This document shows, piece by piece, positions 11,897-12,752 of a stretch of DNA of 64,000 nucleotides (the first letter of the stretch is position 1; each line of letters opens with the position of its first letter). The notes beneath the pieces were generated by a model that had not been told where the DNA came from, did no database searches, and was given only the letters and a program-made list of their open reading frames with translations. The stretch is taken from the sequence record PQ356294.1. One strand, written 5' to 3'. The stretch comes from Escherichia phage Ec_YwIITB1. Position numbers and translations under genes: made by a program.

Positions 11897-11916
11897 TTTA
11901 TTCTCCTCGGTAGTTG

Positions 11917-11954
11917 ATAGGGTAATAGTATCACAACTAAAACCCTATGTAAAC
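11917..11954 (-). promoter_or_regulatory. T4-type early promoter with stem-loop (PeSL-like module, copy A)
   Basis: Minus strand AT-rich upstream region, GTTTAC-N18-TACTAT; inverted repeat ataggg/ccctat encloses the -10; shares a 32-nt identical segment with copy B. Confidence 0.55.
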
Positions 11955-11966
11955 AACTTTGTGAAA

Positions 11967-12224
11967 TTATTTTAAATCTTCTAATCGTTTCTTCATCTTA
12001 GAACCATTTTTAGCAATTTCTCCTGCATCGGAGCATAACGCTAAAAGTGCTTTAACTTTAGTTTGGTCTCCTTTAAAAGATGAAGGATTGACCGCAGCAG
12101 CAAGTTCTTTAATACGAGAGAAAAGACGCTCAGCTTCAGCTAAAGCCATTCCAAGCTTTACTTCCATACCGTGGGAAGATTCAGTGATAGTAGTTTTTGT
12201 AGCAAACTCTTTGAAAGTTTTCAT
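11967..12224 (-). CDS. internal protein I-like small capsid-targeted protein
   Basis: 85 aa, N-terminus MKTFKEFATK...TE resembles the internal-protein targeting sequence; sits where ipI sits in T4 (between tRNAs and 57B). Confidence 0.55.
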   Translation of the reverse strand: MKTFKEFATKTTITESSHGMEVKLGMALAEAERLFSRIKELAAAVNPSSFKGDQTKVKALLALCSDAGEIAKNGSKMKKRLEDLK

Positions 12225-12244
12225 TTTATTTTCCTAATTAATTT

Positions 12245-12284
12245 TGATGAGGTAATAGTATCACTACCTCATCAGCATGTAAAC
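12245..12284 (-). promoter_or_regulatory. T4-type early promoter with stem-loop (PeSL-like module, copy B)
   Basis: Minus strand GTTTAC-N18-TACTAT; perfect 10-bp inverted repeat tgatgaggta/tacctcatca with the -10 in the loop. Confidence 0.55.
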
Positions 12285-12296
12285 AACTTTGTGAAA

Positions 12297-12752
12297 TTAT
12301 TTTAAATCATCTGCCCAATCGAGTTTAAGAGGCTCTTTGTATTCACGATCTAATACGACCGGAATTTGTACATCACCGCTAAATGATAAGGGCCCAACAT
12401 TATAAGACAATGTTATATGCGGTGTGTAATCATCAAAATCATGTGTAGCACCTAGTGCCCGCGCATACATGTGTCGACAGCGCAGATATTCAGAATCTAG
12501 CACAAGTACAAGAGTCGATCCATCTTGTGTTTTCCATACTTCTAAATGTCCAGAAGAAGCTACTTCAAAACTTCCGCTTGATGGAACATACGGAACATTT
12601 ACTCTTGAATAACATATGGTCGAATGAATTTTTTCTCTAGGAACTGGATTAGGAACACGTAAAGAGCGCTGAAGTTCTTCCAGCGCATCAAGTGTTAATT
12701 CTGAAAACTTAGCTGCTACATAAAGACCCGTTGAAAAGTCTTTAAATTCCAT
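12297..12752 (-). CDS. 57B: gp57B, 2H-phosphoesterase-like protein
   Basis: 151 aa at the T4 57B position; two H-x-T/S-x motifs (HSTI, HITL) typical of the 2H phosphoesterase fold. Confidence 0.7.

Follow-up and report, generated by a model that had tools for sequence, protein, structure and literature searches.

Paired early-promoter and stem-loop modules as probable exchange points for internal-protein genes at the Ip5 locus of a T-even phage

Internal proteins are injected into the cell along with the phage DNA. In T4, Ip1, Ip2 and Ip3 each disable a different restriction system of the GmrSD type (PMC12373910), and the internal-protein (IP) loci of T-even phages are flanked by repeated elements, described by Repoila, Tetart, Bouet and Krisch in 1994 (EMBO J 13:4181), that are thought to mediate shuffling, as related in two later papers (PMC2839356, PMC4122927). 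In what those papers relate of it, the 1994 work concerns the same ipI locus between 57B and trna.4, in the same group (Tequatrovirus), and the same early-promoter repeats with AT-rich stem-loops around interchangeable IP genes; the outcome proposed for them, IP shuffling together with a change of host range, is also the one considered here, and nothing essential differs.

A second set of elements, the promoter-early stem-loops or PeSLs of T4-like phages (Arbiol et al. 2010, PMC2839356; Comeau et al. 2014, PMC4122927), described as mobile regulatory cassettes, is built from the same parts: within ~100 bp of intergenic DNA, an AT-rich tract and a sigma-70-type early promoter are combined with a stem-loop, a Shine-Dalgarno (SD) sequence and an ATG. 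PeSLs likewise flank non-essential genes, and indels and replacements end within them. A subclass in which the stem-loop overlaps the -10 has been described (PMC2839356). In the 2010 paper, the elements at T-even IP loci are explicitly described as ‘not homologs ... but analogs’ of PeSLs (PMC2839356), and the 2014 paper extends the name to elements of PST and T4 with variable stems, giving a promoter consensus of TTTACW-N17-TAYWAT (PMC4122927). T4 early promoters in general are built from UP, -35, TGn and -10 elements (Hinton 2010, PMC2988021).

Here we analyse the window, a stretch of 64,000 nucleotides from Escherichia phage Ec_YwIITB1 (PQ356294.1), in which a sequence-only reading had singled out two near-identical promoter and stem-loop modules around an ‘ipI-like’ gene and proposed that this gene is an exchangeable cassette. 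That interpretation is supported by what follows, and the window represents one more instance of a phenomenon already described for T-even phages, here with a single Ip5 cassette.

The 57B to trna.4 locus and its two modules

The window, from a Tequatrovirus, matches Shigella phages sb1 and pSs-1 at ~97% identity and shares with pSs-1 the arrangement with a single Ip5 gene. The features of the locus outside the modules are:

12297-12752, minus strand: 57B, which is Acb1, an anti-CBASS 2H phosphodiesterase (Pfam PF23474 Acb1, E 2.6e-60; annotated 57B in RB14, T4 and others)
11967-12224, minus strand: open reading frame of Ip5, an internal head protein of 85 aa (phrog_3499 ‘internal head protein’, E 9.5e-49)
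12180-12224, minus strand: codons 1-15 of Ip5, the capsid-targeting and cleavage peptide MKTFKEFATKTTITE
11711-11896, minus strand: trna.4-like small membrane protein of 61 aa (phrog_1692, E 6e-35; annotated trna.4 in T4 and RB14)
13338-13345, minus strand: late-promoter motif TATAAATA in gene 1 (marked as a late promoter at the same site in phage SA21RB)

57B and trna.4 form the upstream anchor and the conserved downstream anchor, respectively, of the cassette array. Searches of Pfam returned no family for Ip5 or trna.4, and the gene between the anchors is annotated Ip5 or ipV in RB14, RB32, PST and PP01. Sites cut by the T4 prohead protease end in Glu, and Ip5 carries both the MKT(Y/F)(Q/K)EF targeting sequence of T-even IPs and such a site, with MKTFKEFATKTTITE before the cut and S after it. 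In a BLASTP comparison with T4 IpI, similarity was limited to this capsid-targeting sequence (residues 1-22 of Ip5, 1-26 of IpI), and the mature proteins showed no detectable similarity, which places Ip5 outside the family of T4 IpI, the GmrSD inhibitor. Likewise at the DNA level, homology to T4 ipI covers 12190-12224, and the body of the gene (11973-12189) has no T4 counterpart. The label ‘ipI-like’ thus holds for the position of the gene and its targeting peptide and fails for the remainder; judged from these alignments, Ip5 is a replacement at the T4 ipI position and not an ipI homologue.

The modules on either side of Ip5 consist of the following elements:

12277-12308, minus strand: 32-nt block, copy 1, with 57B codons D-L-K-stop, an AT-rich UP-like tract and the -35 GTTTAC (12279-12284)
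11947-11978, minus strand: 32-nt block, copy 2, with Ip5 codons D-L-K-stop, an AT-rich tract and the -35 GTTTAC (11949-11954)
12255-12260, minus strand: -10 TACTAT of module 1, with TG at -15/-14 (core GTGATACTATTA, 12253-12264)
11925-11930, minus strand: -10 TACTAT of module 2, with TG extension (core GTGATACTATTA, 11923-11934)
12245-12274, minus strand: hairpin of module 1, arms 12245-12254/12265-12274 (10/10), 13 bp with G-U, -10 at the apex
11917-11948, minus strand: hairpin of module 2, arms 11917-11929/11936-11948 (85%), outer stem AUAGGGU/ACCCUAU, 4-bp inner stem, -10 apical
12219-12235, minus strand: ribosome-binding region of module 1, AGGAAA (12230-12235) and the Ip5 start ATGAAA, unpaired in the predicted fold
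11891-11908, minus strand: ribosome-binding region of module 2, GAGGAG (11903-11908) containing a GGAG motif, and the trna.4 ATG

The 32-nt block, ATGTAAACAACTTTGTGAAATTATTTTAAATC, occurs in two exact copies (11947-11978 and 12277-12308, plus-strand coordinates), each running 3 nt past the spans first given for the modules; no third copy was found in the window with up to 3 mismatches allowed, and shuffled sequence gave 0 matches in 100 shuffles. Each block takes in the 24 identical nucleotides that precede GTTTAC, including those coding DLK-stop, such that both upstream proteins end in DLK, as had been noticed (57B in WADDLK, Ip5 in RLEDLK, from the translated reading frames). The complete direct repeat, which had been put at roughly 70 nt, is 69 nt long at 84% identity (11914-11982 against 12244-12312); it also contains the second sequence said to be shared, GGTAATAGTATCAC, at 11921-11934 and 12251-12264. 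A separate 17-nt repeat at 94% identity (11891-11907 and 12219-12235) spans the RBS and ATG. Searching the whole window revealed no module copies beyond these two. Three other CTS-bearing genes in the window are without this module.

On the coding strand, both modules read as had been described, with an AT-rich upstream tract (GATTTAAAATAATTTCACAAAGTT), GTTTAC, an 18-nt spacer and TACTAT; this is equivalent to TTTACA, 17 nt and TACTAT with TG at -15/-14, which matches the sigma-70 consensus at 9 of 12 positions at both sites and fits the PST/T4 PeSL consensus exactly. The string GTTTAC-N14-GTGATACTAT is common to the two. All four recognition elements of T4 early promoters are therefore present, with correct spacing, in both modules, and we would expect them to act as strong sigma-70 early promoters in this phage. 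The modules contain, in addition, the stable stem-loop and the SD/ATG unit of PeSLs, and occur, as PeSLs do, in repeated copies that flank variable non-essential genes and hold indel endpoints; their AT-rich stems have none of the polyG/polyC tracts (GGGG...CCCC) seen in the founding RB49/phi1 set. By eye, neither module has a TGCTT at -30, and we rejected a MotA-box (middle promoter) reading.

The corresponding T4 module, between 57B and ipI, is the same as that of the window but for one substitution and a 1-nt indel, and sits where the T4 RNA class switches from middle to early: ipI and trna.4 are classed ‘early’ and 57B and 57A ‘middle’ (PMC9697503 supplement), although these are kinetic classes and not mapped starts. 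No promoter features are annotated in the T4 records AF158101 and NC_000866, and a DksA RNA-seq paper makes no mention of the genes at this locus; the public record of phage SA21RB marks each of the two sites as a T4 early promoter plus terminator. Within the GAGGAG of module 2 (11903-11908), GGAG is presumably a RegB cleavage motif.

Cassette boundaries in related genomes

If the modules serve as points of exchange, boundaries between shared and foreign DNA ought to fall within them, and this is what alignment of T4-like genomes reveals. Against RB14, RB32, PST and T4_ev240, two long HSPs overlap at 11891-11972 of the window; against T4, the replaced segment is confined to 11973-12189. A comparison of L041 with L010 finds exactly one 330-bp cassette missing from L041, with 128 nt of ambiguous overlap, and in L040, compared with RB32, both Ip5 and Ip9 are missing, with a 65-nt overlap. 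Across seven independent genome comparisons, the endpoints of ip insertions, deletions and replacements lie inside modules, which bears out the idea of the gene as an exchangeable cassette. The RB32 record itself describes Ip7/Ip9 as ‘flanked by 43 bp direct repeat’.

All 37 junctions from 57B to trna.4 in 12 T-even genomes contain the module, which was found in 886 phage records at 2260 places. One, two or three ip genes may occupy the locus. Genomes that match the window at 96-98% in the flanking DNA carry different sets, and from one phage to another a given ip gene is joined to other module halves. Left halves are found combined with various right halves among T-even genomes; the predicted fold reaches -11 to -18.5 kcal/mol where the two are matched and -4.4 to -12.2 kcal/mol where they are mismatched, and in one genome (L026) the -10/right arm is duplicated. 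Mismatched left and right halves, with hairpins that are weakened, suggest crossovers inside the module itself. Together with the published accounts (PMC2839356, PMC4122927), these observations uphold the view of repeated promoter modules as recombination substrates in T4-like phages.

Saying this, endpoints inside repeats are the outcome of any homologous recombination, and so are no proof that the module actively promotes exchange. Nor are modules required for ip-gene diversity, since at three loci from other genera (L022, L024 and L025) ip genes follow one another with no promoter in between.

Hairpins and alternative readings

An inverted repeat that places the -10 in a hairpin loop had been proposed, and both a repeat scan and folding recover it in each module; the predicted energy of the 46-nt core is -17.4 kcal/mol (z -5.6) for module 1 and -14.2 kcal/mol (z -3.7) for module 2, with the stems GAUGAGGUA/UACCUCAUC and AUAGGGU/ACCCUAU. 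From the standard spacing of -10 to +1, transcription from module 1 would start at about 12246-12249, inside the 3' arm, such that the whole hairpin would form only in read-through RNA. A likely source of late read-through RNAs over 57A, 57B and Ip5, hairpins included, is the putative late promoter TATAAATA.

How far is this structure conserved? RNAalifold found no consensus fold for 14 T-even module variants, since the left arm changes register from one module type to another, and covariation over the same variants was modest (4 pairs with a change in both partners, a score reached in 10 of 500 shuffles). A broader sample, the regions upstream of trna.4 at 36 diverse loci, contains 31 distinct sequences, 21 of which have a predicted fold around the -10 (z <= -3.9), built on stems that differ among themselves (GGGCTAT/ATAGCCC against GGGTTAT/ATAACCC, for example); on this cross-genus series, the predicted hairpin is conserved as a structure and not as a sequence.

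This raises the question of whether the hairpin, and not the homology, is the primary element, either as an intrinsic terminator of the upstream unit or as a structure-specific recombination hotspot (for instance a cruciform or stalled fork, releasing excised mini-circles of the kind proposed for PeSLs). Its conservation across genera with different stems is in keeping with this, as are the software annotations of SA21RB, in which both sites are rho-independent terminators; PeSL stem-loops have been reported as effective terminators, and PeSL mini-circles detected in RB49 (PMC2839356), although both activities were shown for RB49 elements only. Set against these, neither stem in the window is followed by a U-run and a scan for intrinsic terminators over 11000-13200 found none, which makes efficient intrinsic termination doubtful, and we do not call the hairpins terminators. 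Viable phages also keep weakened hairpins, at about 8 of the 37 T-even junctions, and the hairpin is therefore not indispensable; furthermore, Arbiol et al. regard the T-even IP elements as analogues with weaker, AT-rich stems (PMC2839356). We consider it possible, at something like one chance in several, that structure comes first and homology second. An Rfam search over 8900-12400 returned tRNAs only.

Slightly better placed, though still tentative, is the idea that the hairpin is an independently selected structural element, a general ‘unit-boundary’ device that may also stimulate cassette exchange, since the -10 stem has been kept across several T4-like genera by way of many mutually compensating stem sequences. 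If true, it would make read-through and self-initiated RNAs differ in stability, termination or translation, and might drive exchange as a cruciform, as a fork-stalling hotspot or via mini-circle formation.

In the T4 genes e, soc and I-TevI, a promoter lies inside a hairpin that acts as a translational switch. The window modules resemble these in having the promoter within an inverted repeat, so that read-through and initiated RNAs fold differently, and one could suppose that read-through RNA is masked and the promoter-initiated RNA alone translated. Pairing of this sort is predicted at the orthologous trna.4 junction of other genera, where a long inverted repeat joins the promoter spacer to the SD (-19 to -21.5 kcal/mol, z ~-6). 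The T4 switches, however, involve late promoters and sequester the SD, while in both window modules the RBS and start codon are unpaired in MFE and centroid folds alike, the hairpin ending 9 nt (module 1) or 8 nt (module 2) before the SD. We therefore reject SD sequestration for this window, and think translational control of this type improbable here. In some lineages, the -10 stem is replaced by a longer stem that sequesters the SD.

Could the two modules simply be strong early promoters, kept alike by selection for strength, with no role in recombination and no cassette between them? Every promoter element is indeed present and conserved, and GTTTAC and TGnTAnnAT recur in other early promoters of the window, but most T4 early promoters are single-copy and alike at consensus positions only, whereas these two also share flanks and hairpin. 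Seven GTTTAC-N18-TAnnnT sites occur in the window, only 4 of which have a hairpin around the -10; identity at non-consensus positions is 67% between the two modules, against a median of 38% over all pairs of the seven, and it extends to positions under no promoter constraint, upstream of GTTTAC. With the chimeric halves and the clustered endpoints, this leaves an explanation by promoter strength already disfavoured and very hard to sustain. Equally slight is the chance that the modules are passive remains of an ancient tandem ip-gene duplication, their promoter, UTR and targeting peptide conserved, the gene bodies diverged and exchange long ended: all ip genes do share the MKT(F/Y)(K/Q)EF peptide and similar 5' UTRs and lie in tandem in the same orientation, yet a 32-nt block that is 100% identical beside mature Ip5 and IpI proteins with no detectable similarity argues for homogenisation, and neither the differing ip sets between near-identical flanks nor the joining of one gene to different module halves is accounted for.

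Proposed exchange of ip genes through the modules

We consider it very probable, then, that the modules are copies of a composite T-even regulatory cassette (early promoter, stem-loop and RBS/ATG) that mediates ip-gene exchange by crossover. A sigma-70 early promoter (UP tract, TTTACA, 17-bp spacer, TGn, TACTAT) would be fused to a stem-loop around its -10, followed by the RBS and start codon and, with one module per junction from 57B (acb1) to trna.4, every internal-protein gene would form its own early transcription unit. RNA initiated at a module would begin in the 3' arm and lack the hairpin; read-through RNA from upstream would carry it right behind the upstream stop codon, where it would most likely serve as an attenuator or 3'-end stabiliser, insulating neighbouring units from one another.

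Homologous recombination of the T4 type is said to need less than ~50 bp. Module copies share ~70-130 bp of near-identical sequence, from the last upstream codons through promoter and 5' UTR to the capsid-targeting codons, and so could support unequal or inter-phage crossovers between modules. Whole ip genes may in this way be lost, gained, duplicated or replaced while expression and packaging signals stay intact.

Portable modules that combine promoter, hairpin, RBS and targeting peptide would let counter-defence genes be swapped by one homologous crossover with expression and packaging kept, and module exchange may help explain fast changes of host range among T-even phages that are otherwise 96-98% identical. 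For engineering, the module would offer a natural ‘landing pad’. We note, lastly, that acb1 (57B), which lies immediately upstream of the ip array, is an anti-defence gene as well.

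Repeated promoter modules flanking the Ip5 gene

By sequence the window belongs to Tequatrovirus; over the first 25 kb, identity to Shigella phages sb1 and pSs-1 and to related coliphages is 96-98% (98% to pSs-1 over 11000-13200). ORF reading places every gene of the module region on the minus strand:

12982-13707, minus strand: gene 1 (dNMP kinase)
12752-12982, minus strand: 57A
12297-12752, minus strand: 57B, that is Acb1 (Pfam PF23474, E 2.6e-60)
11967-12224, minus strand: Ip5-family internal head protein, 85 aa (phrog_3499, E 9.5e-49)
11711-11896, minus strand: trna.4-like membrane protein, 61 aa

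Past trna.4 lie trna.3- and trna.2-like ORFs and then an 11-gene tRNA cluster. The 85-aa gene, described as ipI-like in the sequence-only reading, is not an ipI homologue; its counterparts in the RB14, RB32, PST and PP01 records are named Ip5 or ipV, and its likeness to T4 IpI does not reach beyond the capsid-targeting peptide at the N-terminus (residues 1-22 of Ip5, 1-26 of IpI). Each of T4 Ip1, Ip2 and Ip3 is known to inhibit a distinct GmrSD enzyme (PMC12373910).

The two modules share an identical 32-nt block, present in exactly two copies (11947-11978 and 12277-12308), with no third copy in the window at ≤3 mismatches (0 in 100 shuffles); the facts of sequence given earlier all stand, with two corrections: the gene is Ip5, and the ends first stated for the block were 3 nt too short. 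Around this block, a direct repeat of 69 nt (11914-11982 versus 12244-12312) shows 84% identity, and a separate 17-nt repeat spans the ribosome-binding site and start codon in both modules. Read on the coding strand, each copy opens with the final codons of the upstream gene (GAT TTA AAA TAA, D-L-K-stop), DLK being the C-terminus of both 57B and Ip5, and continues through an AT-rich tract to GTTTAC, 18 nt and TACTAT; a TG at -15/-14 precedes the -10, which is enclosed by an inverted repeat. Folding energies of the 46-nt cores are -17.4 kcal/mol (z -5.6) for the module after 57B and -14.2 kcal/mol (z -3.7) for the module after Ip5.

The resemblance goes beyond what a promoter needs, which points to homogenisation of the two modules by recombination: among the seven GTTTAC-N18-TAnnnT sites of the window, all on the minus strand, the modules are 67% identical at positions free of that pattern, against a median of 38% over all site pairs, and the 24 nt preceding GTTTAC are identical.

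T4 early promoters have been described as UP/-35/TGn/-10 (PMC2988021); all four elements are found in both modules, and we infer that both are active as early promoters. The T4 57B|ipI module is one substitution and one 1-nt indel apart from the 57B|Ip5 module of the window, and in a T4 time course the RNAs of 57A and 57B are classed as ‘middle’ and those of ipI and trna.4 as ‘early’ (PMC9697503 supplement), such that RNA class changes across the module in T4. In the SA21RB record, each of the two orthologous sites carries a T4 early-promoter annotation that overlaps a predicted terminator. T4 IpI itself is classed as ‘early RNA, late protein’ (PMC9697503 supplement), and a late-promoter motif within gene 1 (TATAAATA, 13338-13345) could be a source of the late read-through transcripts needed for a packaged protein.

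The minus-strand ribosome-binding sites are GAGGAG for trna.4 (11903-11908), containing GGAG, and AGGAAA for Ip5 (12230-12235), which lacks it. GGAG is the motif cut by the T4 RegB endoribonuclease, and the window encodes regB (196-657); the module-driven messages of trna.4 and Ip5 may therefore differ in RegB sensitivity.

Cassette boundaries and mosaic modules

We compared the locus across RB14, pSs-1, RB32, PST, T4_ev240, T4, CM8, SA21RB and 36 IMG/VR loci recovered with the Acb1 protein. Across 12 T-even-type genomes, 57B and trna.4 are separated by between one and five ip genes, which belong to six or more unrelated families (ipI, Ip5, Ip6/ipVI, Ip7, Ip8 and Ip9), and a common core of GTTTAC, 16-nt spacer and GATAyTAT occurs at 37/37 junctions.

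The earlier proposal that the modules mark the gene as an exchangeable cassette is correct and passed the refutation test set for it: in pairwise alignments of related genomes, cassette boundaries coincide with modules, the rearrangement endpoints lying inside them. Window positions 11891-11972 are included in both the left and the right alignment against RB14, RB32, PST and ev240, so that the extra genes of these phages are bounded by two module copies. Against T4, replacement is confined to 11973-12189 (the Ip5 body), with homology returning within the capsid-targeting codons. Relative to locus L010 (57B-Ip5-Ip6-trna.4), L041 (57B-Ip6-trna.4) has a 330-bp deletion whose endpoint is ambiguous over 128 nt, and which is exactly one module-to-module unit, the same as that of the window; another locus, L040, lacks Ip5 and Ip9 relative to RB32, with an overlap of 65 nt. 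The RB32 record annotates Ip7/Ip9 as ‘flanked by 43 bp direct repeat’.

Modules are also mosaic when divided at the -10. The left half (stop codon to -10) tracks the upstream gene, with type A after 57B, B after Ip5/ipI, C after Ip6/Ip7/Ip9 and D in a more distant group, while the right half (-10 to ATG; types a, b, c and d) tracks the downstream gene. Matched halves form good hairpins: A+a at -17.4 kcal/mol (-14.8 with a TATC right-arm variant), C+b at -16 to -18.5, B+b/c at -11 to -14, and D+d, with compensating changes, at -13.1. Where the halves are mixed, the hairpins lose strength (B+a -9.5 to -12.2, C+a -4.4 to -7.0, D+a -4.9 kcal/mol). One right half in CM8 turns from b-like to a-like midway, and the Ip9|Ip7 junction of L026 (IMG/VR 2706796299) carries a tandem duplication of the -10 and right arm (GATACTATTACCTCATCAA GATACTATTACCTCATCAAAATT) that looks like a footprint of slippage or unequal exchange within the module. 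The mosaic halves, the CM8 switch and this duplication are what one would expect crossovers to leave behind if they fall at more than one place in the module, namely in the 32-nt block, in the invariant -10 core, and in the 5' UTR together with the capsid-targeting codons.

Such elements have been described before. The stem-loop of a PeSL (promoter-early stem-loop) can overlap the -10, and modular shuffling has been attributed to PeSLs, which flank variable genes and may form mini-circles (Arbiol et al., PMC2839356). As recounted in that paper, the elements of Repoila et al. at T-even IP loci derive from T4 early promoters, have AT-rich stem-loops that are weaker, and are there regarded as analogues, not homologues, of the RB49 PeSLs. 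PeSLs were later extended to the PST/T4 pair, again citing the IP locus, with a promoter consensus of TTTACW-N17-TAYWAT (Comeau et al. 2014, PMC4122927) that the window modules match exactly. With these descriptions, and with 886 phage records carrying the module at 2260 places, what the element is, where it lies and what role is proposed for it had all been described already, and nothing here is new; the locus is a clean, well-behaved instance of a known mechanism.

In Shigella phage CM8 (MK962750.1, 1592-4023) the order is 57B-Ip5-ipI-57B'(3' fragment, 246 nt)-Ip5-ipI-Ip8, a partial tandem duplication of cassettes including the truncated 57B, which explains the seven module matches of that record and may reflect either genuine unequal crossing-over or an error of assembly. 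In several non-Tequatrovirus T4-like phages (IMG/VR loci L022, L024, L025, L011, L016, L020 and L031), no GTTTAC-type promoter was detected between stacked ip genes, and the leading ip gene of some of them runs into the stop codon of 57B (…GATTTAAAATGAAAAC…); one module per gene is thus the usual layout in T-even phages, not in every carrier of an IP array.

The hairpin around the -10

By standard spacing, transcription would be expected to start in the 3' arm, in which case the hairpin would be missing from self-initiated RNA and present in read-through RNA alone. A significant hairpin holds the -10 at four of the seven early-promoter-like sites of the window, and at the sites 8173-8202, 7278-7307 and 60525-60554 none was found; the promoter-in-hairpin design is thus widespread in this genome without being universal. 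Outside the modules, stems unrelated to theirs hold the -10 at 7836-7865 on the minus strand (GGCUCAUGA.../...UCAUGAGCC, -15.7 kcal/mol, z -4.9) and at 685-714, also minus (-10.3 kcal/mol, z -3.4).

We examined the junction upstream of trna.4 homologues in 36 diverse loci, giving 31 distinct sequences; in 21 of these a structure with z ≤ -3.9 encloses the -10, with several different stem sequences and clean compensatory changes (e.g. GGGCTAT/ATAGCCC versus GGGTTAT/ATAACCC). A strong fold around the -10 is absent from seven others, all from more distant IMG/VR T4-like contigs (L011, L016, L027, L042, L039, L043 and L045). When the T-even set is taken by itself, formal covariation gives a modest signal, and hairpins are weakened at about 8/37 junctions. 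We conclude that the structure is selected yet dispensable. Its most likely role, proposed here with low confidence, is to insulate neighbouring transcription units, either through attenuation or by protecting 3' ends.

Masking of the ribosome-binding site was considered and rejected for the modules of the window, where predicted folds leave the site free of the hairpin. The three of the seven divergent junctions that were folded as representatives (L011, L039 and L045) have a long inverted repeat pairing the promoter spacer with the Shine-Dalgarno, e.g. AUCUCCAUUUGG / CCAAAUGGAGAU; energies are -19 to -21.5 kcal/mol for two of them (z about -6), with a weaker fold in the L045 type (-11.7, z -2.8); in those phages, such pairing would mask read-through transcripts translationally and leave promoter-initiated ones unmasked. 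A canonical terminator was likewise rejected, the U-run being absent and a terminator scan over 11000-13200 giving no match.

Other internal-protein-like genes

Just downstream of the tRNA cluster lie two paralogous minus-strand genes (8360-8923 and 9049-9522; both phrog_2280, function unknown) with capsid-targeting-like N-termini (MKTYAEFLTEA and MKSYAQFLNEA). Ahead of each stands a copy of a GC-rich hairpin repeat of 40 nt that resembles a terminator (GGTTGGGGCTTTTTAGT, 90% identical; 9005-9044 and 9564-9603). A weak third copy lies at 8318-8357, and the TATAAATA late-promoter motif recurs at 9563-9570, immediately after the upstream copy. To judge from this arrangement, the pair looks like a second cassette system, with a terminator repeat in place of the early-promoter module.

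A further internal-protein gene (2863-3336, minus strand; MKTYQEFITEA...; DUF7412 / phrog_3155 ‘internal virion protein’) begins 9 nt past denV (3346-3762), without a promoter module, and denV directly follows lysozyme e (3822-4316). At this second IP locus PST instead has e-ipIII-ipIV, with an early promoter and a small hairpin upstream of ipIII.
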